Below the pieces are notes generated by a model. The model saw only the letters and a program-made list of their open reading frames with translations. It was not told the DNA's origin and did not search any database. A DNA stretch of 17,357 nt from a virus (taxonomy: Duplodnaviria; Heunggongvirae; Uroviricota; Caudoviricetes), in the IMG/VR virus record IMGVR_UViG_2663762648_000006, positions 1 through 17,357 of that record. One strand, 5' to 3'. This document shows, in pieces, positions 1,051 through 17,357 of the stretch (positions within the stretch are counted from its first letter, which is position 1; each line of letters opens with the position of its first letter). Made by a program: the position numbers and the translations under genes.

Positions 1051-1061
1051 AATGACCTCGG

Positions 1062-2819: not shown

Positions 2820-3301
2820 CAGTCTCTCGCTTTTAAAAGCTCCGCCAGCGGATCAACATCATCCGGTCCGGCGATATTTACTTTAGCCCGGCTTGCCGGT
2901 GACATACCAAACTCTGCAAGCATTGCCCGGATCCGCTTCCAGGCATCCGCTTTCATTGCCGCCGCGGGGTGCGCCTTAATCAGTACATCACCGCTCTGCG
3001 TTTCCGTGCGGTAGGTATACCCCTCAACATCGAGTGTTTCGCAGTGATGCCGATATTCGGTGTAGGCTTCCACCAGCAGCTCGAGCGCACGCGCATCAAG
3101 CTGAGAAATGATCCCTTCCGCATTCAGCTCTTCCGCCATTCGCCTGAACCAGTACTTCCCCTGAGCCCCTAAATGCTGCGGAATTTTAGGAAGACCTTTT
3201 TCATCCTTTTTAGCGGTTTTTTTGTGGTCTTTAACGGGGCGCTTTGAGGGGTTACCTCGAATCAAATGCAGGCGTGGCGGGGTTTTCGGAGGTCCTGACA
3301 T
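2819..3301 (-). CDS. Terminase small subunit (P27-like)
   Basis: 160 aa with a basic N-terminus, immediately upstream of and overlapping TerL. Confidence 0.8.
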   Translation of the reverse strand: MSGPPKTPPRLHLIRGNPSKRPVKDHKKTAKKDEKGLPKIPQHLGAQGKYWFRRMAEELNAEGIISQLDARALELLVEAYTEYRHHCETLDVEGYTYRTETQSGDVLIKAHPAAAMKADAWKRIRAMLAEFGMSPASRAKVNIAGPDDVDPLAELLKARD

Positions 3302-3449
3302 AATCGGTCTTACCTATCAATCGTTTGTTCACATTTCCAAAAAAAAGTTTTCGAACCTGCGGCGATGTGAGGAAGGGTCAGGCGGCGGTACTGAACAGCC
3401 AGGGTTGCAGAGATTTGACCCGCCCCTCCCCTGCAGATGGGAGCTGTTA

Positions 3450-3800
3450 TCAATTGATGCGTTCGCGCGCTGTTTTTGCTTTATGACAGGGCCAGCACAG
3501 ACTCTGCAGGTTACTGTCTGCATCCGTGCCACCATGAGCTTTCGGAATGATGTGGTCCACAGTTCTGGCTTCAACGGCTCTCCCATTGCGCAGGCAGTTC
3601 TGACACAGATGATTATCACGCTTCAGTATGCGCGCACGTATGGCATCCCATTTCGAGCCATAGCCACGCTGGTGGCGGCTCAGTCCGCGTTGATGCTGTA
3701 CCCATCCTTCGCCACGATGTTTATCGCAGTAACCAGAACTGTCTGTGGTTGTACCTGCACATCCACGCTTACGGCAGGCGCGGGGGGTTAGTGCTGGCAT
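3450..3800 (-). CDS. HNH endonuclease (packaging-associated)
   Basis: 116 aa, cysteine-rich, with an HNH-like motif (DHIIPKAHGG...CWPCH). Its position just upstream of TerS is typical of HK97-like cos phages. Confidence 0.88.
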   Translation of the reverse strand: MPALTPRACRKRGCAGTTTDSSGYCDKHRGEGWVQHQRGLSRHQRGYGSKWDAIRARILKRDNHLCQNCLRNGRAVEARTVDHIIPKAHGGTDADSNLQSLCWPCHKAKTARERIN

Positions 3801-3938
3801 GTTTCGCCCTTATATAAATCAAAGGTGACCTGCATTGAGTATCTCCATGGAATAGATTTGCTGCTGATATGAGACAGATCAATAGACTTCATGAGCCAAC
3901 GGGTGTAGATATTACTTTTTACTTCAGAGGGTTAACTC

Positions 3939-4478
3939 ATGGATATTAAAGATAAAATCAATACCATTTTGTTATGTGACATTGCCATCCACCTAGGTAT
4001 CGAAACTGATATTGATCCACAGCTTGTTAAATATGCTGTGTCATCTGGTAATGATTGGGTTATCAAGGCCGAATATTCACATTTGGATGTTGACGAACCA
4101 AGTAAAGAAGATCGTGATTTTGTTACTGCTGTCTTGAATATGTATCGCGGACTTTCCAATGCTTTCAGGAAACTTAGTGATGACGAGCAAAAAGAATTAG
4201 TCCGTGACCATCATCTAAAAATACATGATGGGGCAATTCAGCTCCCAGGTTTCGACGGTAATAATGAATGCGATTACTTCAGTATCATTGAGGCATATCA
4301 GAAAATTGATCGCTTCCCCGAACAGAAACAGCCCATTGCCAATACTCATTCACGTACAGAACATCTCTATAACGCAATGCTTGATGAGTTTAAGAAAATT
4401 GACGCTGTAAATCGAAGCTGGGATTTATCGAAGGAAGAACTGGCATCCATTCTTTCCACAGCTCCACGCAGTTTCTAA
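3939..4478 (+). CDS. YfbU-family (UPF0304-like) protein; moron antisense to the late operon
   Basis: 179-aa ORF with AGAGGG 8 nt upstream. Local GC is visibly lower than the flanks. Blocks resemble my recollection of E. coli YfbU (NMYRGLS, GFDG, C-terminal LSKEEL...IL). A stem-loop follows the stop. Confidence 0.65.
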   Translation: MDIKDKINTILLCDIAIHLGIETDIDPQLVKYAVSSGNDWVIKAEYSHLDVDEPSKEDRDFVTAVLNMYRGLSNAFRKLSDDEQKELVRDHHLKIHDGAIQLPGFDGNNECDYFSIIEAYQKIDRFPEQKQPIANTHSRTEHLYNAMLDEFKKIDAVNRSWDLSKEELASILSTAPRSF

Positions 4479-4483
4479 GTGCT

Positions 4484-4750
4484 TTAGGCGGGTTTCCAAC
4501 CCGCCTTATTATGCTCGTATATAGAGAAGGAAGCACCCAAATTAACCAGCGCGGATTTCTTTTCCTCAATACGGCTGTTAAGTTCAGCAACTGCATGCGG
4601 GCGTATGGCCTCAAGAAAAGCACTATATTGATAGGCAGACTGGATTGTCACACCAAGCCCTGCACCACTTTCCAGTATACCTTTCTGTCGCTGTAGCTCT
4701 TTCATCTCGTTATAGATGTAATGTGCGTTACTTAGGTTTTCTACGTTCAC
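4484..4750 (-). CDS. Hypothetical protein (GTG start; doubtful)
   Basis: 88-aa ORF co-directional with the late operon, but its 3' end is encoded by the terminator hairpin of the opposite gene and there is no convincing RBS. Confidence 0.3.
   Translation of the reverse strand: MNVENLSNAHYIYNEMKELQRQKGILESGAGLGVTIQSAYQYSAFLEAIRPHAVAELNSRIEEKKSALVNLGASFSIYEHNKAGWKPA
4487..4510 (+). terminator. Stem-loop after the YfbU-like gene (8-bp GC-rich stem, 3-nt loop, then TTATT)
   Basis: ggcgggtt-tcc-aacccgcc is read directly from the sequence. The U-tract is weak. Confidence 0.45.
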
Positions 4751-4905
4751 GCCCTAAGTTCTTCCTGCAGTTAGCCTGCACTGATTTGTTATGCGCCAAT
4801 ATGTCCCGCTTCGTCTGTTGCATTATCATAAGTAATAGCGTAGGTTGACACCTTGGCTCTCTTTCGCCACCGGCGAATCTTTAGCGGATTATCCTTGGCC
4901 GGTTT

Positions 4906-5388
4906 TTATCTGAGACATTGCTCACGAATGTATAGCTGTGCCCCTTCCAGTTGCTTCTGCATCGTCATCAACCGTTCTCTGAGGGTGAAATAATCCCGTT
5001 CAGCGGTGTCTGCCAGTCTGGGGCTGGTTGCATTATCCACGCTGGTGGGTCCGGTGGCTTCACGCACGGCTGCGGAGCAACTGGCATTGACCCGCAGGCG
5101 CTTACGACCAGCGGCAACATCAGCGCGCAGAGTTTCATTTTCAGCTTTCGCATTGGCTAATTCTCTCGAGTACTTTGCATCGAGCGCAGCAACATCACGC
5201 TGACGCTGCTGCATGTCAGCGATGGTGGCGGTCAGCTGCTTCAGCTCACTGACTTTTTTATCACGCTGTTCTTTGTAGGTGATGGCGTTATCACGGTAAT
5301 GATTGACCGCCCACGACAGGCAGACGATGATGCAGATAACCAGAGCATAAATAATCGCGGCGACTCTGCTCACTGATCTATTCCCCAA
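4906..5388 (-). CDS. Rz-like i-spanin
   Basis: 160 aa with an N-terminal TM segment and a charged coiled-coil-like body, immediately after the endolysin, with an embedded +1-frame lipoprotein ORF. Confidence 0.88.
4968..5153 (-). CDS. Rz1-like o-spanin lipoprotein, embedded in Rz
   Basis: 61 aa with a lipobox (LVVSAC) and a proline-rich body, wholly inside the Rz gene in another frame. Confidence 0.82.
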
Positions 5389-5903
5389 CAGGCTAATGCG
5401 CTTTCTTGGTCACGACGAATAACCTGTCCATAGCAGTTATTTGAACGTATGCGGCAATCGCGCCCACCATCTTTTATCCACCAGCGAATCGCCTCGCATG
5501 CGCCCTTACGATCACCAGCATTCAGCCGCTTATAAAACGTCGATGGAAAACACTTACCGGGGCCAATGTTATAGGGACAAAATGACGCGATACCCGCTTT
5601 TTGTGGTTCGGTCAGTGGTACTTTAATATTGCGCTCCACCCATGCCAGCGCCTTATCACGCTCAATGGCGTTGACCTGGTCGCATTTTTCCTTCGACAGT
5701 TTCATACCGGGAAAAACGGGTTTTCCATCCACCATCGTGGCACCCCGACAGATGGTCCAGATGCCGGAACCATCGCGGTATGCCGTTGTGTGGTTACCTT
5801 CTTTTTCATCCAGAAACTGGTCGAGAATATCAGGCGCGGGCGCACCGACGGCAATCAGTGCCAGAACGGCAGCCGACAGGCCGTATCTGATTTTTGCGTT
5901 CAT
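5370..5903 (-). CDS. Endolysin, lysozyme-type with N-terminal signal-anchor-release (SAR) domain
   Basis: 177 aa. A hydrophobic Gly/Ala-rich N-terminus is followed by a T4-lysozyme-like Glu/Asp/Thr motif ([20 protein letters not shown]). It pairs with a pinholin as in phage 21. Confidence 0.88.
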
Positions 5904-5966
5904 GGATATTTATCAGGATTTATCGGTTTCTGCCCACGGACAGGTTTATCTGTTCCGGTCAGTGAC

Positions 5967-6317
5967 TTAAGGTTGTGATTCCGGAGGAGTCTTCAGAGAA
6001 CCAGTAATTCTTCCTGGTAGCTTTCCTTTGTAGGTTATCCACACATTCTGCGCCTCTAAAATTACGGGGCGCTTTTCCGGCGACTGCTCATCCCCTTCAC
6101 ATAACCCGGCAGCAACATCCAGGAAGACCTGTCTGATGCTCCTTCTGGCTGCTGCCTCATAAAACTCCAGCGCGGCACCTTCAACACGGTCCAGCGAGAT
6201 GTCCAGGTCAAAAATTTCACCGTCAAAGCGTTTTTTGTCCCGTAACGCTAAAGTTACCGTAACTTTATTCTCAAAATTGCGGATCCCTTTCACAATCAGT
6301 TCATAGTTTTGAGTCAT
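5967..6317 (-). CDS. Hypothetical protein inserted between holin and endolysin
   Basis: 116-aa soluble ORF with a 4-nt gap to the holin stop. It may correspond to small DUF proteins found between essQ and rrrQ in cryptic prophages, but I could not verify that. Confidence 0.55.
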   Translation of the reverse strand: MTQNYELIVKGIRNFENKVTVTLALRDKKRFDGEIFDLDISLDRVEGAALEFYEAAARRSIRQVFLDVAAGLCEGDEQSPEKRPVILEAQNVWITYKGKLPGRITGSLKTPPESQP

Positions 6318-6321
6318 TGAA

Positions 6322-6537
6322 TTACTCTCCCCGTGCAGCCTTACGCTTGTCTTCTCTGATTTTGAAGTACAGATTTGTCAGATAAGTCAGGAAGCCCAGA
6401 ACCAGACTCCCCAGTACACCAATCGCAGCCCACTGTGACGGACTGACCTGATCAAGCCACTGTAAAAACCAGTAGCCAGCACTGCCTGCGGAGGTGCCAT
6501 AGGCAATGCCCGTTGAAATTTTGTCCATGGATTTCAT
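6322..6537 (-). CDS. S: Class II holin, phage 21 S-type pinholin with dual-start motif
   Basis: 71 aa starting MKSMDK, nearly identical to my recollection of S21 (…[26 protein letters not shown]…). GGAGGTGAG precedes the start. Confidence 0.9.
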
Positions 6538-6594
6538 AGCCTCACCTCCGCAAATAACGGATGGCGTAGTTTTACACTGAGAAATGAAAGGGAT

Positions 6595-6622
6595 TTGAAA
6601 AGAAAAGCCCGCAAAAGCGGGC
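6595..6622 (-). terminator. Rho-independent terminator (tR'-like) between the tRNA cluster and the holin
   Basis: Minus strand reads GCCCGC-TTTT-GCGGGC followed by TTTTCTTTTC. Confidence 0.7.
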
Positions 6623-6829
6623 GAAACAATATATACAGTAAGGAAAGCACTCTATCCAACAAACCACCCACAGTTAATCGGAATAAAAGCAGAGTGCTTA
6701 TGAATGATCGCCTGCCCGAAGGTTAGTATTTCTGCACAGCAATTTTGCAAAAAAAAGCGATCATTCATAACTTAAACGTCTTTCAGTCACTCCGGGATTT
6801 CCCATCATCGCAGACTGAAAGACTCTAAC

Positions 6830-6904
<75 letters not shown>

Positions 6905-6907
6905 ATA

Positions 6908-6983
<76 letters not shown>

Positions 6984-6985
6984 AC

Positions 6986-7062
6986 TGGACCGCCACCGGG
7001 GACTCGAACCTCGCACACTCAACTTAAAGGGTTGACGCTCTTTCCTGATGAACTGGTGACGG
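6986..7062 (-). tRNA. Atypical tRNA-like gene (anticodon loop CCTTTAA, nominally UUU; possibly degenerate)
   Basis: 77 nt with encoded CCA and a T-loop TTCGAGT, but C at position 8, C at position 33 and a T-stem mismatch. It lies 1 nt downstream of the tRNA-Ile-like gene. Confidence 0.4.
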
Positions 7063-7063
7063 T

Positions 7064-7139
7064 TGGTGGCCCTTGCTGGATTTGAACCAGCGACCTGGCG
7101 ATTATGAGTCGCTCGCTCTCACCACTGAGCTAAAGGGCC
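7064..7139 (-). tRNA. ileZ: tRNA with CAU anticodon, tRNA-Ile2 (lysidine) type, ileZ-like
   Basis: 76-nt clean cloverleaf: acceptor GGCCCTT/AAGGGCC, anticodon loop CTCATAA, T-arm GCTGG-TTCAAAT-CCAGC, CCA. It closely resembles my recollection of E. coli ileX and of the tRNA carried by Stx-type phages. Confidence 0.8.
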
Positions 7140-7148
7140 GGGCGCAGG

Positions 7149-7177
7149 ATAATAACGTTACGAAATCAATGTTGCAA
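7149..7177 (-). promoter_or_regulatory. Sigma-70 promoter (pR'-like) driving the tRNA cluster
   Basis: Minus strand has TTGCAA, a 17-nt spacer, then TATTAT. The predicted start is about 7 nt upstream of the first tRNA 5' end. Confidence 0.6.
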
Positions 7178-7254
7178 GCATTCAAAAATCACCTGGTTAA
7201 AAATCACCCTTAGCTCCTCCACCAGCGCATTCACCATGTCTATCCGAGATAAGT

Positions 7255-7296
7255 GGCACAAAAAAACCCGCTTGTGGGCGGGTTTTGTTTGCTTTT
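7255..7296. terminator. Bidirectional Rho-independent terminator downstream of the Q-like gene
   Basis: AAAAAAA-CCCGC-ttgtgg-GCGGG-TTTTGTTTGCTTTTG: hairpin flanked by an A-run and a T-run. Confidence 0.65.
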
Positions 7297-7349
7297 GCCA
7301 TCACGTACAAAATCGGCAAAATATCAGATTTGCATGAAATATATGCCTT

Positions 7350-8039
7350 TCAATCTACTTTTGCAACACTTTGCTTTGAAAATGCCGCCTTTTGTTTTGA
7401 ACGTGTTCTCATTACAAACAATAAAGCCTCACTATCCAGTCGTTGAAAAATGTGTTTCATTGCAACCCAGTGACGAGTAAATGTTTTGGACCAGTTTTTA
7501 GTTGTCACTCCCGCCAGTAATGCCAGCTCCTGGTATTCATAACCTTCCCCACCAAAAAGTTCTGCTTTTACTGCCTGCGCCGCCAGCCAGATTAATTTTT
7601 TCAGGCGTTCCTGCGTTTTCCCTGCAATTTTTCTGGTACCGGATTGAGTATTAAATTCATTCCACGCCCACTGTGTTATCGCGATCTGATATTCCCAACA
7701 AATACTCTCGCCGTAACACCACAACAACCAGGCTTTATGATGCTCTTCAAGAGACAGCAAAGCCCGCCGCCATGATGATGTCGAAAACTCAACCGGGCTG
7801 ACCAGGGCAATTGATGAGCCATTCGCCAGTGATTGTTTTCCCGGGATTGGTGGATTATCCCGCGTTATCATTTTTCCAGTCACTTCATCGCGGTACCGGA
7901 TTTTTTTTCGCCTGTAACGCCCTGTATCGAACATGGCATTCTCCTGCCAGGCTTCAAGCTGACCTTTTGTTGCCCCACTCAAATCAGCGGTGGCGATAAT
8001 GAGCTGCTCACGCACAAACTGTAAATACTGGTTATTCAT
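7350..8039 (-). CDS. Putative late-gene antiterminator (Q-like); assignment by position only
   Basis: 229 aa from the ATG at 8039, which overlaps the rusA stop (ATGA). It is the last gene before the terminator, promoter, tRNAs and lysis cassette. I do not recognise the sequence as a specific Q family. Confidence 0.45.
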   Translation of the reverse strand: MNNQYLQFVREQLIIATADLSGATKGQLEAWQENAMFDTGRYRRKKIRYRDEVTGKMITRDNPPIPGKQSLANGSSIALVSPVEFSTSSWRRALLSLEEHHKAWLLWCYGESICWEYQIAITQWAWNEFNTQSGTRKIAGKTQERLKKLIWLAAQAVKAELFGGEGYEYQELALLAGVTTKNWSKTFTRHWVAMKHIFQRLDSEALLFVMRTRSKQKAAFSKQSVAKVD

Positions 8040-8401
8040 GCGCACTCCAGTTCTGTGATTTTTATCCCCAGCCGCCCACCAGGAACGAGCTGACCGCGCA
8101 CAATATTGATTTCATCAAACTGCTCGTCGTCTATGAGTAGTCCGGCATGCGTCAGCGCATCCAGTGGTGCTTTCAGGATATTGTCCAGGTCACGACGGCG
8201 CTTATCCGGTGGCTCTGCAATAATCTTTATCGCCAGCCTTCCGGACAGGTTTAATTTCAACCGCTGCTGGCGAACAATTAGCGCCACATCATGGCGATAA
8301 CGCTTTCCGGCCTCCGAGATGAAATACGTATTGCCATGACGTCGCCAGTAGGTATTCACCGTCGGCGGGTAAGGCAAAACAAATTCTATGCGTTCAGTCA
8401 T
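8036..8401 (-). CDS. rusA: Holliday junction resolvase RusA
   Basis: 121 aa with motifs matching my recollection of RusA (PPTVNTYW, DKRRRDLDN...K...DALT). Confidence 0.88.
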   Translation of the reverse strand: MTERIEFVLPYPPTVNTYWRRHGNTYFISEAGKRYRHDVALIVRQQRLKLNLSGRLAIKIIAEPPDKRRRDLDNILKAPLDALTHAGLLIDDEQFDEINIVRGQLVPGGRLGIKITELECA

Positions 8402-9457
8402 TCATGCTTTCCACTTCAGGACACCCGAATTTCTCGCGTGCATTAAAAAACGAATCAGCAACAACAGCTGGCTGCCGTGTTTTTCTTCAAAATCTTTTAC
8501 CCCGGCGTGCAGTTCGTTATGACATTTACGGCACAGCGGAATAACAAACAAATCATCAGCCTTTGTTCCCATCCCTCCCAGTCCATGACCAATGATGTGA
8601 TGCGGATCATCTGCCTGATTACCGCACGTCATGCATTTCTGCGTTTTTACCCAACGCGTGTATACAGGCATCTCTTCCCGTTGTGGTTTCTGGCGCTGGA
8701 GATACTGAGCCGGTGACTCCGGATCAACGGCAATGCTGACCACCGTCTTTTCCTGTGGCGGGTTTTGCTGGTGGGCATGAGGCAACGGCGCAAGATTTTT
8801 TGTGCGCTGCTTCAGTATGCTGGTGGCGGTCTGCTCTCCCGGTACGATGTCGCTTTCGCGGTACAAGGAGCGGATTTTTTCCGCACGTAACCCCAGAGAA
8901 CGACGTAATACTGCCTCCGGAAGCGCGTCCGCCACCTGATTGCAGACCGCCCACCAGGATAATTCAGCCAGCGACAATTCCCGCTCCTGCGTGCCATTCA
9001 TTGCATGGCGTATGACGTCAATCATCCATGCTGACAGGTTTTGATGAGCAAGTTGCCCGAGTGATTCGGATGTCTGGTCACGCAACTGGTTGTCGCAGTG
9101 CCAGCACAACACCATCGCGCCGGTACCGTAACGATGTATGACGATTTCACTGTGATGATAGTCACCATGAGGCCACTGGCAGGATTTGACATGACGCAAC
9201 AGCCAGTCAGACAGTGCCCCAGCGCCGCCAGCAGCACGAATCACCCGCTCATCGCTGAAAAATGGCAGTAATGATTTATCCTCCGCCAGCGGCTGGCGAA
9301 CGGCAGGGACGACTCCGGACGGCAGACCGCGCATGCTTTTCGGTTCAGGCTCCACCAGCACTCGAGGGTTATGAAATACTTGCATGGATTCACGGCCCGG
9401 CCTAAGGACCACCAGCCCGAGTTCCGGTACCAGAACAGGTCGAAGTAATATCCGCAC
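8402..9457 (-). CDS. DUF968-like prophage protein with C-terminal HNH/zinc-finger-like motif (YdfU-like)
   Basis: The long ORF reaches 9529, but a GTG at 9457 has GGAGG 5 nt upstream and sits 1 nt after the upstream gene's stop, so I prefer that start. The C-terminus carries CMTCGN...HHIIGHGLGG...CRKCHNELH. Confidence 0.65.
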   Translation of the reverse strand: MRILLRPVLVPELGLVVLRPGRESMQVFHNPRVLVEPEPKSMRGLPSGVVPAVRQPLAEDKSLLPFFSDERVIRAAGGAGALSDWLLRHVKSCQWPHGDYHHSEIVIHRYGTGAMVLCWHCDNQLRDQTSESLGQLAHQNLSAWMIDVIRHAMNGTQERELSLAELSWWAVCNQVADALPEAVLRRSLGLRAEKIRSLYRESDIVPGEQTATSILKQRTKNLAPLPHAHQQNPPQEKTVVSIAVDPESPAQYLQRQKPQREEMPVYTRWVKTQKCMTCGNQADDPHHIIGHGLGGMGTKADDLFVIPLCRKCHNELHAGVKDFEEKHGSQLLLLIRFLMHARNSGVLKWKA

Positions 9458-9458
9458 G

Positions 9459-9737
9459 TTACCTCCAGATCCGTTGCTGGTATGTGCGGGATGGGCGCGG
9501 TGGGCGTTCGGAATAAGGGAGCCTGACATAGATTATCCAGTGACGATAATCGAGGCTGAGGGCTTTCTTAATCTCGTATCCGCGTCTGCGATAGTTATGA
9601 ATTAGCCATTCGGCCTGTTCTTCAGTACATGGGTCATGCTGGAACCAGTCAGATTTGAAAGTGCGGGAACGCCGCCCGTGCCTGCTGGCAAAGACGGCAG
9701 AATCATCAGAATTGTGTAATTTGGTATCGTGCGCCAT
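9459..9737 (-). CDS. Hypothetical nin-region protein (92 aa from internal ATG)
   Basis: The ORF extends to 9818 with an alternative start; the first ATG is at 9737. Same strand and tightly packed with the DUF968 gene. Confidence 0.45.
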   Translation of the reverse strand: MAHDTKLHNSDDSAVFASRHGRRSRTFKSDWFQHDPCTEEQAEWLIHNYRRRGYEIKKALSLDYRHWIIYVRLPYSERPPRPSRTYQQRIWR

Positions 9738-9814
9738 CGGTTGTCTCTGCTGGCGCAGCAGGTGCCAGTTGTTCAGGCTGGCGTGCGAATTGTAAACCAG
9801 AATGCCAGGAAAAA

Positions 9815-9843
9815 ACAAAACCCGCCGAAGCGGGTATGCTAAA
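9815..9843 (-). terminator. Rho-independent terminator after the lipoprotein gene
   Basis: Minus strand reads CCCGC-TTCG-GCGGG followed by TTTTGTTTTTT. The same motif recurs at the 3' ends of both hok copies. Confidence 0.65.
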
Positions 9844-10033
9844 ACAAACTGAAAGTAATATACCGGACTTGTAAAGGAACGATAGAATAATTATTGGATT
9901 AAACCCTGACTCAATCCAGATTTTATAGGCAACAACTACGGACTAATCATCACAGTCATGTTTGATAGGCTTAGTCCACATTGGGTGAGGGTTTACGGCG
10001 TTTTCACTAATAATTTATCGTCCAAGCTATACA

Positions 10034-10426
10034 CTACTGCCCTGTTTTAACGAAGTTTTTAAAGGAAACAACTGCCTGATAGGGGTTTGGTTGACAGCCA
10101 AACATATTATCGCAAAAAGGCTTGATGAAAATTCTTGAGGATCCATCTTCATTTGGCATTTTACTCACTTGATAAGCGAGGAATGGACTATTTGGAGAGG
10201 GATTATAAGTGGAAATTAGCGTGTCTGTCGCCGTTTGAATTTTCCATGAGGAATTATTAGCCAACCAGAATTGCGCTCGTTTCCAATAAAAGTCACATTG
10301 CTTTTCATCATTACATGTTAGTGGCTTCATTGCTTCTGCTTTCAACGCTGGATCGACCTTTGCTGCACACCCTCCCAACATTACTGTTGCAATCATTACA
10401 CCTGCGACTAAAACAAGTTTCTTCAT
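10034..10426 (-). CDS. Secreted lipoprotein (moron); possible superinfection-exclusion or surface-modifying factor
   Basis: 130 aa with a signal peptide and lipobox (VMLGGC), four further cysteines, and markedly low-GC DNA. It has its own terminator. Confidence 0.7.
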   Translation of the reverse strand: MKKLVLVAGVMIATVMLGGCAAKVDPALKAEAMKPLTCNDEKQCDFYWKRAQFWLANNSSWKIQTATDTLISTYNPSPNSPFLAYQVSKMPNEDGSSRIFIKPFCDNMFGCQPNPYQAVVSFKNFVKTGQ

Positions 10427-10569
10427 CTCCCTGCCCCATCAATAAAAGTTCGGTTCTCTAATAACTAGAGTTAATCAACGGAAAAAACGCCGAAGCGGGT
10501 TAAGTGCGGGTGCGTTGAGGATGCCTGACACATCAGAGGTGGCGAGGGATTTCTCCCCCGCCAGGTCTC

Positions 10570-10782
10570 TTACTCCTCAGGTTCGTAAGCTGTGAAGACA
10601 GCGACCTCCGTCTGGCCGGTTCGGATTCGTACCTCGCAGAGGTCTTTCCTCGTTACCAGTGCCGTCACAATGACGGTTAAACAGATGACGATCAGGGCGA
10701 TTAACATCGCCTTTTGCTGCTTCATAGCCTGCTTCTCCTTGCCTTTCGGCACGTAAGAGGCTAACCTAGATTTGCCGTTCAT
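10570..10782 (-). CDS. hok: Mok/Hok-family type I toxin, copy 1 (Hok/Gef-like 51 aa from the internal ATG at 10725)
   Basis: C-terminal 51 aa (MKQQKAMLIALIVICLTVIVTALVTRKDLCEVRIRTGQTEVAVFTAYEPEE) matches Gef/HokC as I recall it. AAGGAG precedes the internal ATG. The in-frame upstream extension resembles MokC. Confidence 0.85.
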   Translation of the reverse strand: MNGKSRLASYVPKGKEKQAMKQQKAMLIALIVICLTVIVTALVTRKDLCEVRIRTGQTEVAVFTAYEPEE

Positions 10783-10978
10783 AGATTGAGCCTCAGATTA
10801 ATGTTAAGCGTCTTGCAGCAATTCTACTTAAGTATTTTTGATTCTATTCCGGCACCATCTAAAACTTCAAACGCGTTGAAAATAAAAACAAAAACCCGCC
10901 GAAGCGGGTTAAGTGTGGGTGCATTGAGGATGCCTGCCCCATCAGAGGTGGCGAGGGATTTCTCCCCCGCCTGGTCTC

Positions 10979-11191
10979 TTACTCCTCAGGTTCGTAAGCT
11001 GTGAAGACAGCGACCTCCGTCTGGCCGGTTCGGATTCGTACCTCGCAGAGGTCTTTCCTCGTTACCAGTGCCGTCACTATGACGGTTAAACAGATGACGA
11101 TCAGGGCGATTAACATCGCCTTTTGCTGCTTCATAGCCTGCTTCTCCTTGCCTTTCGGCACGTAAGAGGCTAACCTAGATTTGCCGTTCAT
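10979..11191 (-). CDS. hok: Mok/Hok-family type I toxin, copy 2 (identical protein)
   Basis: Translation is identical to copy 1 and lies in the second unit of the tandem duplication. Confidence 0.85.
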   Translation of the reverse strand: MNGKSRLASYVPKGKEKQAMKQQKAMLIALIVICLTVIVTALVTRKDLCEVRIRTGQTEVAVFTAYEPEE

Positions 11192-11387
11192 AGATTGAGC
11201 CTCAGATTAATGTTAAGCGTCTTGCCGGACGCGTAATGTTAACTGGGGCTTTTCTCTATCTGCCTTTGGTGTTCATGCCTGAGGCAGATAGCCTCAAGCA
11301 CCCGCAGCAATTCTACTTAAGTTAGATAAGCTTTTCTATGGTATTCTCTCAGCGTCCCGTAAATACAGTCTCGGCTCATCATTTTTA

Positions 11388-11645
11388 TCACAGGTGCGAG
11401 GAAAATATATAGCGCCCTCCATCAAGCATAACGAAATACATTTTCCATTCATCGCCATTCCTCAATTTAATACGAAGACTTTCCCCGCAAGTGTATTTAT
11501 TAAACAACTGTTCCGATGTGCTAGTAAGAGGTATTTTTACCGTTATTACAACTACTGCCCCACCATTTAACTCTCGAAGTTCAGCATCCGCATCCACAAA
11601 AGATGAATAAATGTTATGATCTGGGTAATCAACAATTAACTGCAT
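11388..11645 (-). CDS. Hypothetical protein, low-GC orphan
   Basis: 85 aa from an ATG with AAGGAG 5 nt upstream. Very AT-rich DNA; no recognisable motif. Confidence 0.5.
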   Translation of the reverse strand: MQLIVDYPDHNIYSSFVDADAELRELNGGAVVVITVKIPLTSTSEQLFNKYTCGESLRIKLRNGDEWKMYFVMLDGGRYIFSSHL

Positions 11646-11783
11646 ATTCACTCCTTAAATATAGCAACTAAAACAAACAACGATTTAACAGTAGGAATTG
11701 TTTTTATAACATATGAACGGTGCAAGATCTATCCAGATGAAGCCTCCCCTCACACCCCCGTCTCATTACATGCATTTACTATC

Positions 11784-12299
11784 TCACCGTAAAACATCCT
11801 CCACGCTTATCAGTCCGTTTCGCTTCAGGTAGTCCATCGCCTTCTCCGGTAATTTGCAGTCCGGCTTGGCTTTTTTCAGTTGGCTGACCAGTCGTTTAAC
11901 CCACATTGTTAATTCGCTAACCTGATTGCCGGAAGCTGGTGGGTTGTCGGCTTTACCCAGAATGACAGCACTGCAGGCCTCTTTGAGTACCCAATCAACA
12001 GCATCTTTCCATGCTCCTGTTTCGACTGGTGGATTCTCACGCTTTACCTGTTCATAAAAGCGCACGGCTTTAACCAGTCCTTCTGATGTCAGTGGCACAG
12101 GCGGGGCAGTGAATAACGCCTGAATTTCATAGCTCGGCCTGTCGTTGCAATCCTCTTTTGTCGGTACATATTTCCAGTCACCAACCCACGGCTCCCCCTG
12201 TGAGTCCGTAATGCCTTTTTTCACGTAGCGATATCGCCATGCAACTGGTTTTGCCTGCCCTGCCGTTTCATGTCCTTCCTGATAATTAATCTCGCTCAT
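11784..12299 (-). CDS. Hypothetical phage early protein
   Basis: 171-aa ORF with ATGA overlap to the upstream gene. Confidence 0.6.
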   Translation of the reverse strand: MSEINYQEGHETAGQAKPVAWRYRYVKKGITDSQGEPWVGDWKYVPTKEDCNDRPSYEIQALFTAPPVPLTSEGLVKAVRFYEQVKRENPPVETGAWKDAVDWVLKEACSAVILGKADNPPASGNQVSELTMWVKRLVSQLKKAKPDCKLPEKAMDYLKRNGLISVEDVLR

Positions 12300-12472
12300 T
12301 CATCGCCCCACTCATCACAATATGCTTCGACCGGAGTTTTTCCTGCTTCGTAGTCATAACGCCATGCTTCAGCATCAGCGGCACTTCCACCGCGTAACTC
12401 TGCATAGTCCATTAACAGTTCATGCCATTCTTCAAAACTGACGTTGTATTTAGTTGAACCAAAATCAGCCAT
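12296..12472 (-). CDS. Hypothetical small acidic protein
   Basis: Internal ATG at 12472 with AGGAGG 9 nt upstream; overlaps neighbours at both ends. Confidence 0.5.
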   Translation of the reverse strand: MADFGSTKYNVSFEEWHELLMDYAELRGGSAADAEAWRYDYEAGKTPVEAYCDEWGDE

Positions 12473-12647
12473 TTTGTTCTTCCTCCTCATCTTTTATTTC
12501 GTGATATGAGTAATTGCAGTAGTTAAAGAAAATTTCTTTTGCTTCGTCCTGTATTTCATCTGGTGTCGCACCATCATCCACTTCGAATACATCCTCAAAA
12601 TCTCCACCAGCTATTCCCGTTTCAATAATTATTCTGAACTTTCGCAT
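12465..12647 (-). CDS. Hypothetical small acidic protein
   Basis: 60-aa ORF in the same operon-like array. A GC hairpin lies just upstream of the start. Confidence 0.45.
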   Translation of the reverse strand: MRKFRIIIETGIAGGDFEDVFEVDDGATPDEIQDEAKEIFFNYCNYSYHEIKDEEEEQNG

Positions 12648-12742
12648 TTCATTACCGCCCTTTCGGGCGGCCTCCTGATGTTCTGAGGGTGCAGAAATCC
12701 CTCCGGTTAAGGATTAAATTTTATTTACAACACTAAATTTAA

Positions 12743-12943
12743 TTATTCAGGCGCGCGAATCTGTTCCGCACAATGCAACAATGCTTCTGTCACTTCCTTA
12801 AGCGTTACGGTATCGGCATCATCCAGTCCTGCAACTTTTGCGTGCCTGGCAAACGCCGCGCAAAGGTCGTTAAACGCCACCGCCCGTACATCAGCTAGGA
12901 AAGCGTTAGCAGCAGCCAATTCCTGGTAGTCAATCCTGCTCAC
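12743..12943 (-). CDS. Hypothetical small protein
   Basis: 66-aa ORF whose start overlaps the upstream gene's stop. Confidence 0.45.
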   Translation of the reverse strand: MSRIDYQELAAANAFLADVRAVAFNDLCAAFARHAKVAGLDDADTVTLKEVTEALLHCAEQIRAPE

Positions 12944-13365
12944 TGCGCCGCCTCCTGAAAATTCCCCTGATAGAAAGCCAGTACACGCTGCATAACTTCA
13001 CTATTCCGGCACTCGCGACAGATTATGTTCAGACGCCTGTCATAGCGGCGTATTTCTCCGTCTGGTAACGACCAGATAAGGTCCGGATCAACCACAGATG
13101 TTTTTTTCTTCAGCTTTGCCCTTGAGAGTTTTTTGCGGGCATTTTGCCAGTCCTTACGAGCCTGTTCAGACGGGAATAACCCGTAACCAGAGTTGTATAC
13201 ATCGCCACTGGCAACCAGCTCTCTGGCAAGAACGCTCATCAGATATCTTGTTGCCCCAGTTTTAGCTTCCAGTTGTCGTAACGTCTCGCGCCCACTCTGG
13301 CGTACGAGTTCAACAACCTGCCCTTTAATTTTTTCCCGCTCTTCTTGTGTAAAAACTTTTGCCAC
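12940..13365 (-). CDS. Hypothetical basic protein downstream of the replication initiator (possible replication accessory or DNA-binding protein)
   Basis: 141-aa lysine/arginine-rich ORF at the position P or ren would occupy in lambda. No family recognised. Confidence 0.55.
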   Translation of the reverse strand: MAKVFTQEEREKIKGQVVELVRQSGRETLRQLEAKTGATRYLMSVLARELVASGDVYNSGYGLFPSEQARKDWQNARKKLSRAKLKKKTSVVDPDLIWSLPDGEIRRYDRRLNIICRECRNSEVMQRVLAFYQGNFQEAAQ

Positions 13366-13405
13366 AAGCCCTCCTGAAAATTACCTCATGACCAGAAATT
13401 AACAC

Positions 13406-14482
13406 TTACCCCCTGAAGCCCGGCGGAATTTCGTTATCCGGTTCAGAAATATGATTCACACAACGCTGGTTGTTCGTGCCGCTTACCGGGAGCAACCAGG
13501 GGTTCTCAAAATTCCGGTCCGGTCCAAAAAACGTCGTCGCTCGCTGAACAAATTCCGTTCCCGTTTTCCCGGTAGCCGCCAAGTATCTTGCGTAACGCCT
13601 CACGCCATCCAGCATGGCCTCTGGTGGCACCCCCTCGCGTAATCTGGCCTTCCAGGCACTGAAAGCGGATTTCTTCGGGTTTGCTCCGGCACGCAACGGG
13701 TACTCCCGCCAGACCTGTTCGAACGCATCCGGATAATCCACTCGTCCCACAGACAGCCCGGTGTTTTCCGGGACTACCCGATCGGCTTTCCGCTGAATGG
13801 CGGAATCGGCTTCAGGCTGCTGCAGTTGGAGTGATTGCTCCGGCCTTGCGGTCATCACCTGCTGCACAGCGCCCGAATCGGCTTTCAGCGCATACGCTGA
13901 ATCGGCTTCCGGTGTCGTGCCTGCTGGCTGACCAGGATTGACGGTCTGAACATCCCCTGCCTGGTTCGTGGCGTTTTTTACGCCATGGACCATAGTGTTT
14001 TGATCTTCTTGATCTGTATCTTTATCTGTATCTTTATCTGTCGTGACTCGTCGTGACATGTGCGTGACATTTCGTGACGCGCCGTGACAATCGCCATTTT
14101 GTTCCCGCTTTCTTTCCCTCTCTCGCTGCGCCCTCTTGCGCTCTGCAGGAGATTTTGCGGTTTGCGAAATATTGCCGTTGTCCTCTTTAAGCACCTGGCG
14201 TTTTTCCCATCCAGTGATTAAATCACCATCAAGTACCCGCCCCTGCATCGTCTGCAAAATTGAATCAATTACCTCTTCTGTCACGTCGAGCGCACTTGCC
14301 AAATCTTCTGTCGTGACATCAATGTGACCTCGCGTGACATTTCGTGACGCGCTCACCAGGAGGTGGATATACACTGCCATCACTGTTGCAATTGGCTGCC
14401 CTGACACCCTGGCAATTGTTCGCCACTTAGGGTCATTTGGCATGTCATGCCATAATCTGAGCCAGGCGTTAGCCATACTCAC
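13406..14482 (-). CDS. Replication initiator (O-like; possibly YdaU/DUF1376-type) containing the origin iterons
   Basis: 358 aa, third gene after the Cro-like and YdaT-like genes as in Rac. Two iteron arrays lie inside the N-terminal half of the gene, as ori-lambda lies inside O. Confidence 0.6.
   Translation of the reverse strand: MSMANAWLRLWHDMPNDPKWRTIARVSGQPIATVMAVYIHLLVSASRNVTRGHIDVTTEDLASALDVTEEVIDSILQTMQGRVLDGDLITGWEKRQVLKEDNGNISQTAKSPAERKRAQRERERKREQNGDCHGASRNVTHMSRRVTTDKDTDKDTDQEDQNTMVHGVKNATNQAGDVQTVNPGQPAGTTPEADSAYALKADSGAVQQVMTARPEQSLQLQQPEADSAIQRKADRVVPENTGLSVGRVDYPDAFEQVWREYPLRAGANPKKSAFSAWKARLREGVPPEAMLDGVRRYARYLAATGKTGTEFVQRATTFFGPDRNFENPWLLPVSGTNNQRCVNHISEPDNEIPPGFRG
14042..14088. 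repeat. Iteron array 1: five CGTGAC repeats at 10-11 bp spacing (putative origin)
   Basis: CGTGAC at 14042, 14052, 14063, 14073 and 14083. A TCTGTATCTTTA tandem repeat lies just upstream (14005-14040). Confidence 0.65.
14280..14348. repeat. Iteron array 2: four to five (C/T)GTGAC repeats including one inverted copy
   Basis: GTCACG at 14280; CGTGAC at 14312, 14333 and 14343; TGTGAC at 14324. The 20-mer CGTGACATTTCGTGACGCGC is shared with array 1. Confidence 0.6.
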
Positions 14483-14547
14483 CTCTTCTGATACCGAATC
14501 TTTTTACTCACGAGTTGCCGGAAGCGATTCGATATGGCTATTGTCAG

Positions 14548-14973
14548 TCAATGTACTGCCACAGCATTTCCTGCCGGGCCACCACGGTTCATCTGATTGA
14601 AACCGGCGATTGCCACTGCGACAAAATCATCAGCGTCTCTCACCAGTCGTTCATGCGTCTCCACCAGTTCCCGAAAATAAGCTGAACTGTGGCTGCGCAT
14701 TCGAGCCACCAGCGGAGGTGGCATTGCCCTTTCGATCGCAGGTAACAACGCCTGAATTTTTTCAACAGCGTCAGGGGTGTCTTTATCCAGCCAACGGAAA
14801 ATCTTTTGGGTGTTGAGATAAAGCGTGTTGTGCTTGCTGTCGTTATGCAGAACCGGAAACGTCATTCCCAGTTCGAAATAAACCCTGGTTATTTCAGCTG
14901 CCGGAACTTTTTCACCGTCCGGATGCGCCCAGGCTTTCATCGCCATGCGGATGTGTTCATGCTTGATTTTCAT
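14548..14973 (-). CDS. ydaT: YdaT-like protein (CII-position regulator of Rac-type prophages)
   Basis: 141 aa starting MKIKHEHI, as I recall for Rac YdaT; it directly follows the Cro-like gene. Confidence 0.7.
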   Translation of the reverse strand: MKIKHEHIRMAMKAWAHPDGEKVPAAEITRVYFELGMTFPVLHNDSKHNTLYLNTQKIFRWLDKDTPDAVEKIQALLPAIERAMPPPLVARMRSHSSAYFRELVETHERLVRDADDFVAVAIAGFNQMNRGGPAGNAVAVH

Positions 14974-15233
14974 GAATCAACCCCCGCCGATGGTTGTGTG
15001 TTAGCCTGAAACTCAGCAGGCAAGCCGTCAGTTGGGTTGGGGTAGGTTTTACTGTCAATCTCATGTGGGGTCACCACCCATCCCGTTGCTTCACACCAAC
15101 GTAATATTTTTTCTCCTGTAAGTTTTGCACGCCCCGTTATAACGTGGCTGACCATCCCTTGGGATGCGCCAACAATCTCAGCAAATGAACTCTGGGTTAT
15201 ATGAAAATGATGCAAATATTCTCCAAGATTCAT
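14970..15233 (-). CDS. Cro/YdaS-like HTH regulator
   Basis: 87 aa from the ATG at 15233 (the ORF extends to a TTG at 15260). HTH-like segment SQGMVSHVITGRAKL. Divergent from the repressor gene. Confidence 0.7.
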   Translation of the reverse strand: MNLGEYLHHFHITQSSFAEIVGASQGMVSHVITGRAKLTGEKILRWCEATGWVVTPHEIDSKTYPNPTDGLPAEFQANTQPSAGVDS

Positions 15234-15260
15234 AATCCGCCCTATGTGATGTGTTACCAA

Positions 15261-15344
15261 TGCATAATTAATAGCACTGTTATTTTTAAAAGTAAATAGT
15301 GATACTATTTCAAAGTGATTAGCAATCTTATTAGAATTGGATGT
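15261..15344. promoter_or_regulatory. Immunity-region intergenic spacer with divergent promoters and operator-like repeats
   Basis: 84-bp AT-rich spacer between divergent HTH genes, with repeated AGTGAT/AGCACT half-site-like motifs. Confidence 0.45.
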
Positions 15345-15845
15345 ATGAAAAGAAAATCATTGTCAGACACCGACCTCAACGCCGCCAGAAGACTGAAAGA
15401 AATCTGGATGGCAAAGAAATCTCAGTTGGGATTGACTCAGGAACGTGCGGCGGAAATTATGGGGTTTTCAACACAAGGGGCGGTAAGTCACTACCTAAAT
15501 GGTCAAACCCCACTAAACCTTGAGGCTGTTCTAAAGTTTGCTGGCTTACTGAAAGTTCCCCCTGAGTCAATCAGGCCAGACATGGTAGATTTGCTGCAAA
15601 TTGCAAGGATGTATTGTCGAGAACCACAGCAAGATAACATAGTCGCATTACCAGCAGACACAGAACAAACAGAGGATGAACTACCGTTTGCCGTAGAGCC
15701 GATGGAACGAGATTTAATCCATACGTTCAGAGCTTTTCCGAAAGAAGATCAAGAACACATGCTTCAGGAGATGAAAGATAAAAAAGAATCAATGGATCGT
15801 ACGGTTGCGCGGTGGTTAGCTGCACAAAAAGGCCGTCGCGCCTAA
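15345..15845 (+). CDS. Prophage repressor, HTH type (RacR/CI-like, apparently without an S24 peptidase domain)
   Basis: 166 aa from the ATG at 15345. HTH segment LTQERAAEIMGFSTQGAVSHYLNGQ; the C-terminus is acidic and shows no Ser/Lys peptidase motif. Confidence 0.7.
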   Translation: MKRKSLSDTDLNAARRLKEIWMAKKSQLGLTQERAAEIMGFSTQGAVSHYLNGQTPLNLEAVLKFAGLLKVPPESIRPDMVDLLQIARMYCREPQQDNIVALPADTEQTEDELPFAVEPMERDLIHTFRAFPKEDQEHMLQEMKDKKESMDRTVARWLAAQKGRRA

Positions 15846-15864
15846 ATCAGAGGAGATATGTAAA

Positions 15865-16059
15865 ATGAGTACAGTCCTTTCCCCAATGGTTTCAGAATTT
15901 GAGACAGTTGAGCAAGAAAATAGTTACAACGAATGGCTGCGGGCCAAAGTAGCAGCAAGCCTCGCGGATCCCCGCCCGGCGATTCCGCATGATGAGGTAA
16001 TGGCGGAAATGGAACAAATTATTGCCCAAATTGCTGCTGCAACTCACAGAGGTGAATAA
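15865..16059 (+). CDS. Type II antitoxin, ParD/Phd-like
   Basis: 64-aa acidic protein whose stop overlaps the start of a ParE/RelE-like toxin (TAATG). Confidence 0.65.
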   Translation: MSTVLSPMVSEFETVEQENSYNEWLRAKVAASLADPRPAIPHDEVMAEMEQIIAQIAAATHRGE

Positions 16060-16349
16060 TGTTACCCGTTTTATGGCTACCATCTGCTCGTGATGATTTG
16101 CGCCAGATCGTAGCCTACATAGCTAAAGAAAATCCCGCGGCAGCACGCAGAATGAAAATTCGAATTGAAACATCCGTTTTGCCGCTCACAGAGCATCCTT
16201 ACCTGTATCCTCCAAGCGAGCGAGTTCTTGGTCTTCGTGAAATTGTAACTCATCCTAACTACATCATCCTTTACCGAGTAACAGCATCAAGCATAGAAGT
16301 AGTAAATATTGTGCATTCTCGAAGACAGTATCCAGGCAAAAACAGTTAA
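16059..16349 (+). CDS. Type II toxin, ParE/RelE family
   Basis: 96 aa with the pattern LPVLWLPSARDDLRQIVAYIAKENPAAA...REIVTHPNYIILYRV typical of ParE/RelE toxins. Confidence 0.75.
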   Translation: MLPVLWLPSARDDLRQIVAYIAKENPAAARRMKIRIETSVLPLTEHPYLYPPSERVLGLREIVTHPNYIILYRVTASSIEVVNIVHSRRQYPGKNS

Positions 16350-16365
16350 TTATTCCCGCCGACAG

Positions 16366-16390
16366 AACCACCTTAGGGTGGTTTTTTCTT
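16366..16390 (+). terminator. Rho-independent terminator after the toxin-antitoxin pair
   Basis: AACCACC-ttag-GGTGGTT followed by TTTTTTC. Confidence 0.75.
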
Positions 16391-16629
16391 GCCCCAACAA
16401 AAAACAATAGCGATGCTATTTACATCAAAAAAAAATAATGATGCTATTGTTTCAGGCGTCAACCCACCCCGCCCCACAGAATGCAGGGCAATACTTCGAG
16501 TTACCTGGCAGTGGTCAGGGGTTAAATAGCCAGCCCGAGGCGTAAGAACATGACGGCAGGGTTCAATCTTTAACTATGCAGCAGGTTTTTTGTTCCGCCA
16601 CCCCGGCGTTAAGGGGAAATGAGGTCAGC

Positions 16630-16782
16630 ATGGATACTATCGATCTTGGCAACAACGAATCTCTGGTGTGCGGCGTGTTCCCTAACCAGGATGGAACGTT
16701 TACCGCCATGACGTATACCAAAAGCAAAACGTTTAAAACCGAATCTGGCGCGCGTTGCTGGTTAGCCAGAAACACTGACTGA
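16630..16782 (+). CDS. Small hypothetical protein (possibly YdaF-like)
   Basis: 50 aa from the internal ATG at 16630, with GAGG 6 nt upstream. The stop overlaps the next start. Confidence 0.45.
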   Translation: MDTIDLGNNESLVCGVFPNQDGTFTAMTYTKSKTFKTESGARCWLARNTD

Positions 16783-17159
16783 TGAGGCTGACGATGGAAT
16801 TTAAAGATTTACCGTCTGATGTACAGAAAACAGCAGCTCATACATTGCATTCTGTGCTGCGAGAAATCGGGAAAGATATTGCAAGCGAGCCAGCAAAAGA
16901 TCTGGCCCGGAAAATCAAGACCGCTTTCGTTGAGCTTTATAATGTTGGCACTGACTCTGAAACTGTCGAGACCAAGACCGTAAGTTCACCAATATTCTCA
17001 CTTGAGCCAAGCGTATTATCAGGTGAAATATGCACCGAGATTTCCAGCGAACTGCTTCCGGTAATACGAGAAGCAATTCGCCGTCGCGGTTTGGATGGAA
17101 GTTATGATCATGACGTTCTGCAAGTTCTCAGGACAATGGTGACTTCACTGGGGATTTGA
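16782..17159 (+). CDS. Hypothetical early-left protein
   Basis: 125-aa ORF, translationally coupled to the preceding small gene. Confidence 0.5.
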   Translation: MRLTMEFKDLPSDVQKTAAHTLHSVLREIGKDIASEPAKDLARKIKTAFVELYNVGTDSETVETKTVSSPIFSLEPSVLSGEICTEISSELLPVIREAIRRRGLDGSYDHDVLQVLRTMVTSLGI

Positions 17160-17357
17160 TCCCTGCGTCCTCTAAGCTTTTGATATAGCGGTCCTCCAAG
17201 AAGCGGTAAATTTTGTCGAAATCATCTTTTCCCTCTGGTTTATTCAGAGGATTACAGGACCCGTAAGTAGCGGCATACATTTCAACCGTTTGGTAATGAC
17301 TCCAACTTATTGATAGTGTTTTATGTTCAGATAATGCCCGATGACTTTGTCATGCAG

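Follow-up and report, generated by a model that had tools for sequence, protein, structure and literature searches.

The locus examined here raises the question of how an accessory gene comes to lie between copies of one and the same transcription terminator. It belongs to a 17,357-nucleotide stretch of tailed-phage DNA (Caudoviricetes; IMG/VR record IMGVR_UViG_2663762648_000006, positions 1 to 17,357; hereafter the window), in which a lipoprotein gene and two tandem hok units of hok/sok, a toxin-antitoxin (TA) system of type I, are accompanied by a short repeated hairpin motif. A preliminary description of the sequence had proposed that the lipoprotein gene and both hok units were gained or amplified by recombination between these repeats, each as a self-terminated unit. 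Comparison with related prophages placed the insertion of the lipoprotein gene right within the terminator hairpin of a hok gene, and the joint of the second hok unit at another short sequence. Besides an ordinary hok locus, the window contains a damaged copy of hok and a lipoprotein moron, that is, extra DNA absent at the same position from close relatives.

The 19-mer AAAACCCGCCGAAGCGGGT occurs exactly at 9817-9835 and 10891-10909 and with two mismatches at 10482-10500 (AAAAAACGCCGAAGCGGGT); the chance expectation in 200 dinucleotide-preserving shuffles of the sequence was 0 matches. The threefold repeat noticed at the outset was thereby confirmed, as was the order of repeat, lipoprotein gene (10034-10426), repeat, hok1 (10570-10725), repeat and hok2 (10979-11134). 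The position first given for the leftmost copy was 8 nt too high, while the string reported for the second (CGCCGAAGCGGGTTAAGTG) has its first letter at 10488, as stated, and the position of the rightmost copy agreed within 1-3 nt. The copies are called T1, T2 and T3 here, from left to right. All three lie on the plus strand as written, so that they would be terminators for the minus strand, on which all genes of this part of the window are encoded. On the minus strand it reads ACCCGC-UUCG-GCGGGU, with a U-tract after it. The stems of T1 and T3 are 6-7 bp long and include 5 GC pairs, the loop is UUCG, and the tails are UUUGUUUUUU and UUUGUUUUUA, respectively; both hairpins were called by a terminator consensus scan, whereas T2 was not. 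RNA folding gave -13.1 kcal/mol (z -3.4) for T1 and -12.5 kcal/mol (z -2.9) for T3. T1 and T3 show the anatomy of an intrinsic terminator, a GC stem-loop plus U-tract on the sense strand 3' of a gene, and T2 fails to do so. The fold of T2 reached only -5.3 kcal/mol (z +0.3) and contained no hairpin, and its 3' arm is gone because ACCCGCUUCGGCG runs straight into U6; T2 is therefore predicted to be a truncated hairpin and no working terminator. The notion of self-terminated units accordingly held for T1 and T3, which fold, and not for T2, which no longer does; T1 probably serves the lipoprotein gene and hok1 alike.

The motif appeared to be the Rho-independent terminator at the 3' end of prophage hok mRNAs, located 6 nt past the fold-back element fbi. 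In the predicted fold of the 415-nt hok2 mRNA (11303 to 10889; z -7.6), the 5' end GGGUGCUUGAGG pairs with CCUCAAUGCACCC, 6 nt before the terminal hairpin. The same tac/fbi architecture has been described for the hok mRNA of plasmid R1 (PMC9841398). Because of this architecture, with the hairpin directly after fbi, T3 and the remnant T2 were identified as the hairpins at the 3' ends of the hok2 and hok1 mRNAs, respectively.

Prophages with and without the lipoprotein gene were compared. The locus L003 (strain 167), lacking the gene, has one hairpin fused to the hok 3' untranslated region (UTR) and reads ...aaaacccgccgaagcgggt/tacgtgcgggtgcgttgagg, also written ...ccaggaaaaaacaaaacccgccgaagcgggt-tacgtgcgggtgcgttgagg... 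In L001 (HCP5S3_I2), L002 (Jnd12), L006 (STEC384) and the window, the left flank and hairpin of L003 are followed by gggt/atgcta, the lipoprotein gene, and then aaaaaacgccgaagcgggt/taagtgcggg, the right end of the cassette reading ...ggaaaaaacgccgaagcgggt-taagtgcgggtgcgttgagg in all four. The extra DNA, a cassette of 665 bp, sits between two hairpin copies sharing CGCCGAAGCGGGT (13 nt), a direct repeat whose T2 copy is at 10488-10500. The distal copy, T1, retains the original U-tail and flank, its 3' flank being that of the single hok terminator in cassette-free prophages, and the hok-proximal copy, T2, retains the original hok side and is the place where the cassette meets the 3' UTR of hok1. 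The comparison of L003 with L001 and the window thus revealed a moron at one position, with the break lying exactly in the repeat as the preliminary description had anticipated for cassette-lacking relatives. These results placed the insertion of the lipoprotein gene precisely inside the hok terminator hairpin.

The T1 junction was the same in 12 further lipoprotein loci. An unchanged gggt/atgcta joint was present in every other lipoprotein locus examined, comprising five contigs of IMG/VR and four more E. coli genomes, of which three were partial or diverged variants. The cassette was detected in 255 of 5,426 complete E. coli genomes, chromosomal every time, and the partial-match loci inspected showed the same site and context, one of them being hit by an insertion sequence. 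Because the joint was identical in all loci checked and partial matches lay at the same site, the data point to one ancestral insertion.

The gene of the moron was also found at other places. Homologues of the lipoprotein (66-85% amino acid identity) were found in Enterobacter, Pantoea, Phytobacter and uncultured contigs, located between lambda-like tail genes (H/M, M/L, K/I or I/J) or behind a gene of the ant/Bro-N type. The alignment of their 5' flanks extends from a hairpin up to the ATG: the flank starts with AAACCCGCTTCGGCGGGTTTTTG in L018 (Pantoea sp. 201603H) and with AGCCCGCTTCGGTGGGTTTTG, directly after the tape-measure stop codon, in L010 (E. hormaechei), and variant hairpins occupy this position in two other contigs. 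The moron thus seems to carry a hok-type hairpin in its own upstream flank in other genera, and its 13-22 nt of identity with the hok terminator would follow from this. On the downstream side, homologues elsewhere have their own terminators, different in each case, 40-90 nt after the stop codon. A scan of species-representative genomes for the lipoprotein detected two distant Pseudomonas homologues only, in no donor context.

The lipoprotein cassette is not the only cargo at this position. Among the 120 hok 3' ends listed from IMG/VR, which allow rough frequencies only, about 50 were followed directly by the ORF-ydfU context and about 38 by the rem context, with several others, and 17 had a cassette between two hairpin copies. 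The lipoprotein gene accounted for 6 of these 17. The other cassettes were RosmerTA in three divergent alleles (1,835-1,865 bp; PADLOC RmrA E 6e-105, RmrT E 5e-25), a Fic/Doc-type pair (840-847 bp; Pfam Fic E 1e-11) and a pair of HTH and Peptidase_M78 genes (1,348 bp). Apart from the truncated T2, the ends of the bracketed cassettes shared only the 16-nt hairpin and 3-4 T, about 26 nt at most (L115), and the cassette termini were mutually unrelated. The site 3' of the hok terminator looks like a small hotspot for defence and TA genes. Loci of this slot in IMG/VR were L029/L042/L148/L198, L161, L213, L115, L141/L146/L194, L242-L291 and L292-L371. In L318 and L319, the Doc cassette was observed after a diverged hok-like 3' coding end (gcttacgaatccgccagtaag), not of the hokW/hokD type, and still had the same hairpin at its end, joined to the ORF-ydfU flank.

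We consider it probable that the hok terminator marks a slot for morons and other cargo, entered by recombination across hairpin identity. The slot lies directly 3' of the hok hairpin in lambdoid prophages, between hok and either the ORF-DUF968(ydfU)-rusA-Q block or rem, and cassettes would enter or leave it across the short identity of terminator hairpins, by a single crossover between co-resident lambdoid genomes, through excised circles or by template switching. Since the moron carries the same hairpin, and since this hairpin is the commonest terminator of such cargo, cassettes would be swappable between terminator-marked slots, and such swaps would leave the neighbouring operons undisturbed. 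In the prophage state, T3 would end the hok2 transcripts, transcription of hok1 would leak through T2 into the lipoprotein gene, and T1 would end both. T1 and T3 would stop hok and moron transcription before the ORF-DUF968-(rusA)-Q block. In phage lambda, the terminators of the nin region shield Q, and T1 may shield the Q-proximal block in a similar manner.

Several points weigh against this interpretation. The register of the joint within T2 cannot be fixed, as T2 may represent either T1 without GGTTTTG or a hybrid that includes the tail of the moron itself, and the right junction (GCAT/ACCCGC) comes without a demonstrated donor hairpin for the lipoprotein gene. For RecA-type recombination, 13-22 nt of shared identity is a short stretch, and intermediates of such an exchange were not seen. 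For the lipoprotein gene, the scan of the window called no sigma-70 consensus promoter upstream of 10426. Finally, the hairpin is widespread. A scan of IMG/VR with the exact 19-mer (ACCCGCTTCGGCGGGTTTT) gave at least 123 matches; among the 123 listed, 25 followed hok and about 98 were unrelated to it, so that the two copies around the cassette could be independent adjacent terminators, and Doc cassettes that do not adjoin this hok also end in that hairpin. As a phage terminator, the 19-mer is generic and very common; a shared hairpin is therefore not by itself evidence for common descent. The weight is carried by the homology breakpoints between genomes with and without a cassette, and by the hybrid T2.

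Cassettes of the same kinds were also found away from hok. RosmerTA occurs there with CCCGC-loop-GCGGG hairpins of other loops, once in the slot between the tail genes H and M, and the Doc cassette behaves likewise, an H/M-slot relative ending in AACCCGCTTCGGCGGGTTTTTTT abutting gene M. The intergenic site between H (tape-measure) and M was observed with lipoprotein, RosmerTA and Doc cargo (L010, L019, L020, L280, L341, L117, L061, L085) and is a second terminator-marked moron slot. As a bolder and distinctly tentative extension of recombination at the hok slot, the CCCGC-UUCG-GCGGG terminator might be a portable, homology-based docking site, at which self-terminated cassettes (lipoprotein, RosmerTA, Fic/Doc TA and HTH-M78) hop between at least two lambdoid slots, the post-hok site of the nin region and the tail H/M site. 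Such movement could proceed via excised circles or template switching at the hairpin, and the neighbouring HNH-like DUF968 protein is a candidate for stimulating cassette exchange.

If, instead, each unit simply owned the commonest terminator of enterobacterial phages, the repeats would reflect selection for insulation and would have no role in recombination. The roughly 80% of listed 19-mer matches lying in unrelated contexts agree with this explanation, as do the Doc cassettes carrying CCCGCTTCGGCGGG away from this hok and the same hairpin terminating cargo before the tail gene M; moreover, morons by definition bring their own terminator (PMC3594210). The explanation nevertheless appeared unlikely to us. 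When genomes carrying the cassette are aligned with genomes lacking it, homology stops within the hairpin and not beside it, the distal hairpin always has the U-tail and flank of the cassette-free genome, and selection for insulation would not yield a truncated hybrid such as T2, predicted to be unable to terminate. In a wider sampling of the RosmerTA cassette, both hairpins were perfect in 34 of 50 loci, those beside hok; the loop was that of hok (TTCG) in 30 of these 34 and TACG in the other four, and was varied in most other contexts.

The part of the preliminary description concerning hok amplification was not upheld. The two hok units form a direct repeat of 300 nt (10482-10781 and 10891-11190; 97% identical), and the tandem period of 409 bp with a hairpin at the start of each unit would be expected if unequal crossing-over between hairpins had amplified hok as well, leaving three repeat-bounded cassettes; hok islets formed by local duplication are also common (bioRxiv 10.1101/2025.08.07.668861). 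The alignment of the junction ruled out such hairpin-mediated amplification of hok. The units are joined at CTACTTAAGT, 57 bp beyond the hairpin, and from CTACTTAAGT on, the sequence is that of Qin-type prophages (L005, L007 and L009 of K-12), comprising the leader and promoter of rem and the terminator of hok. Both the intervening 57 bp and the single-nucleotide polymorphisms in the hok2 body are those of prophages with the order hok-terminator-rem (L005, L007), unlike the hok1 lineage. The copies differ at 3% of positions, and hok1 has a separate deletion of 78 nt. The three-cassette model as a whole is thus very improbable. The hok2 unit appears to derive from a prophage of the hok-terminator-rem type, joined upstream of hok1 by an illegitimate event at the 10-bp microhomology, and T3 would exist only because of this event. 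Exact-pattern scans for the two-hok joint and for the joint of the 78-nt deletion gave no match in IMG/VR or the Joint Genome Institute (JGI) metagenomes, and neither joint was present in the 5,426 complete E. coli genomes, in which a 61-nt probe spanning them was covered to at most 48%.

Insertion by small transposon- or integron-like elements aimed at the hairpin, the second copy of which would be a target-site duplication, would account for the direct repeats at every cassette and for several unrelated cargos at one site, but was rejected as scarcely credible, because the cassettes have no conserved termini, inverted repeats, transposase or integrase (the cargo proteins, examined with Pfam and PADLOC, being RmrT/RmrA, Fic/Doc, HTH/M78 and a lipoprotein only), the duplicated length varies (13, ~20 and ~26 nt), and the same cargos stand beside different hairpin variants elsewhere.

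Table 1. Features of the hok-lipoprotein region of the window, in order of position.
Feature	Position	Strand	Description or basis
T1, predicted intact intrinsic terminator	9810..9835	-	stem-loop 9835..9820 (also called by consensus scan), U-tract 9819..9810
Lipoprotein cassette, untranslated 3' tail	9836..10033	-	198 nt, stop codon to T1
Lipoprotein moron, coding sequence (CDS)	10034..10426	-	130 aa, signal peptide ending in lipobox LGGC
Lipoprotein gene, 5' flank	10427..10487	-	homologous to 5' flanks of Enterobacter and Pantoea homologues, hairpin to ATG
T2, predicted truncated hairpin	10482..10500	-	ACCCGCUUCGGCG then U6; 3' arm GGU lost
hok1 fbi-like element CCUCAACGCACCC	10508..10520	-	analogy with hok2; 5' partner absent from hok1
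hok1	10570..10782	-	51-aa Hok CDS 10570-10725 and in-frame 70-aa extended open reading frame (ORF), Mok-type
hok1 deletion joint	10815..10818	-	GCAG microhomology; versus L001 and hok2
hok1/hok2 duplication joint CTACTTAAGT	10824..10833	-	10-bp microhomology; hok promoter region joined to rem-type leader
Spacer, 57 bp	10834..10890	-	identical to segment from hok terminator to rem promoter of Qin-type prophages
T3, predicted intact terminal hairpin and U-tract of hok2 mRNA	10883..10910	-	stem-loop 10910..10893 (also called by consensus scan), tail 10892..10883
hok2 fbi-like element CCUCAAUGCACCC	10917..10929	-	pairing with mRNA 5' end 11292-11303 in minimum free energy (MFE) fold
hok2	10979..11191	-	51-aa Hok CDS 10979-11134 and 70-aa extended ORF
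hok2 complete leader	11129..11303	-	Rfam RF01794 'sok' model, 111.7 bits (gathering score 59)
hok2 tac-like 5' end GGGUGCUUGAGG	11303..11292	-	MFE fold
hok2 promoter-like site	11338..11310	-	promoter scan

The coordinates of the features are summarized in Table 1. The two hok units encode an identical 51-aa Hok protein (PF01848, E 3e-23), and they differ in their leaders. The RF01794 model matched the hok2 leader only; hok1 gave no match because 78 nt of its leader are deleted. What is lost is the 5'-terminal 78 nt of the mRNA, tac among them: the match of hok1 to the leader of L001 ends at ...GCGTCTTGCAG and resumes at CAATTCTACTTAAGT. In the hok1 leader (10783-10833, compared with 11192-11303 of hok2), the -35 region is replaced by rem-type sequence. 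By analogy with the R1 model, in which a hok mRNA without tac stays locked, hok1 is probably translationally silent, as the Shine-Dalgarno sequence of mok would stay sequestered. It could still be covered by Sok from hok2. The 57-bp spacer contains a promoter-like TTGAAG-18-TAGAAT (10870..10841). The rem promoter and leader (10834-10870 of the window; 2010-2060 of L007) share ACTTAAGTAG and a TAGAAT -10 box with the hok promoter. The sequence upstream of rem may derive from an older promoter of hok, which would be a sign of tandem hok arrays in the past.

The lipoprotein cassette conformed to the composition of a moron, with a GC content of 0.39-0.42 across 9750-10500 versus 0.52-0.58 in the flanks, and has its own terminator, T1, 198 nt past the stop codon. 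A TAGGAT-like box conserved in the homologues is altered in the window. Matches to the 198-nt tail in the phage collection were confined to two E. coli phage records, both carrying the lipoprotein cassette. A small RNA in this tail was considered and rejected, as the fold was no better than those of shuffled sequences (z -1.1). In the most diverged lipoprotein locus (~93% identity), L004 of E. coli TUM1886 (1990-2040), T1 was seen to carry four substitutions in the 16-nt hairpin (ACCAGCCTCAGCGAGT), and 110 nt of the 3' tail of the cassette were deleted; together, this is more change than in the flanks. The protein belongs to PHROG 16082, a family of unknown function. Searches of Pfam and PADLOC gave no match, and the match to Cor was negligible. 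An AlphaFold2 model (predicted local distance difference test score, pLDDT, of 83.7) found no structure at E < 0.01 in the PDB, the best being a weak BamC-like match with a TM score of ~0.4. A role in superinfection exclusion is a guess.

Other genes were observed to the left of the region. A small conserved ORF (9459-9737, minus strand; PHROG 1212), annotated as 'toxin to Rem' in some phage records, lies 3' of T1 and directly upstream of the gene for the DUF968/HNH-like protein of the YdfU family (8402-9529, minus strand), whose longest ORF has 375 aa versus ~350 aa annotated in relatives. Four tRNA genes (6830-7139, minus strand), assigned to Gly-tcc, Thr-tgt, Lys-ttt and Met-cat by ARAGORN, three of them also called by Rfam, lie where the late region begins, downstream of the DUF968 gene and in the place of the rusA/Q block of relatives.

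Morons and defence systems of prophages are known to cluster in hotspots, and the entry of cargo in a way that spares phage transcription is rarely visible at nucleotide resolution. In this locus the joints are directly legible. As the cargo was placed within the terminator of hok, a terminator would still stand before each of hok, the cargo and the Q-proximal genes further downstream. If hairpins serve as general recombination joints, accessory and defence genes could be sought between duplicated terminators of lambdoid prophages, and the mobility of morons would have a testable mechanism. Insertion could, in that case, also cripple the 3' end of a hok mRNA, as in T2, a part essential in the model of hok regulation. 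If the hairpin is a docking site, it would be a temperate-phage counterpart to the shuffling of PeSL units in T4-like phages discussed below.

A hok terminator, a moron and a hok islet are all of known kinds. No report of cassettes bracketed by hok terminators was found in the literature on PeSL, morons, hok regulation and hok distribution, a coverage that is incomplete and gives no proof of novelty. What is modestly new is the nucleotide-level view of a terminator-marked cargo slot beside hok, used by the lipoprotein moron as well as by several defence or TA cassettes that also occupy the tail H/M slot.

As a hok/sok type I TA locus, the region shows the Hok/Gef domain, the Mok-type extended ORF, the RF01794 leader and the tac/fbi pairing with terminal hairpin, and resembles hok/sok of Qin in its position beside rem or ydfU. 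It differs in having two tandem copies, the proximal one lacking tac and the terminal hairpin, with a lipoprotein gene spliced into its terminator. Hok islets are defined as 2-6 hok copies within 2 kb (bioRxiv 10.1101/2025.08.07.668861). The two near-identical hok genes 409 bp apart are comparable to them, but appear to be a chimera of two prophage lineages formed via microhomology, with one damaged copy, and were not found in the collections searched.

The lipoprotein cassette agrees with the moron concept of Juhala and Hendrix for lambdoid phages (PMC3594210) in being extra low-GC DNA relative to sibling prophages, in having a terminator at its end, and in the occurrence of the same gene elsewhere, in the tail operon, in other phages. 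In contrast to such morons, its insertion point lies within a pre-existing terminator, leaving two hairpin copies with the upstream one apparently disabled, and the window showed no clear promoter of the sigma-70 type. The fixed slot with interchangeable cargo (RosmerTA, Fic/Doc TA, HTH-M78 and lipoprotein) seems reminiscent of the defence hotspots of P2 prophages and P4 satellites (PMC9122126). It differs from them in being located at the lambdoid hok terminator and in having a repeated terminator, rather than flanking core genes, as its borders.

The closest parallel was found in the PeSL (promoter-early stem-loop) cassettes of the T4-like phages phi1 and RB49, in which variable ORFs stand between repeated promoter/stem-loop units, an empty site is represented by one such unit, and mini-circles were detected; recombination between copies, possibly via excised circles, was the proposed route (PMC2839356). 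The slot beside hok likewise has a repeated terminator stem-loop around a variable gene and one copy where the gene is absent. The PeSL motif, however, is conserved over ~100 bp including a strong early promoter, whereas the repeat described here covers 13-26 nt (hairpin plus U-tract) with no promoter common to the cassettes, and its hosts are temperate lambdoid phages, with no circles observed. By analogy, the cassette exchange seems to resemble PeSL shuffling while falling outside the definition of the PeSL family.

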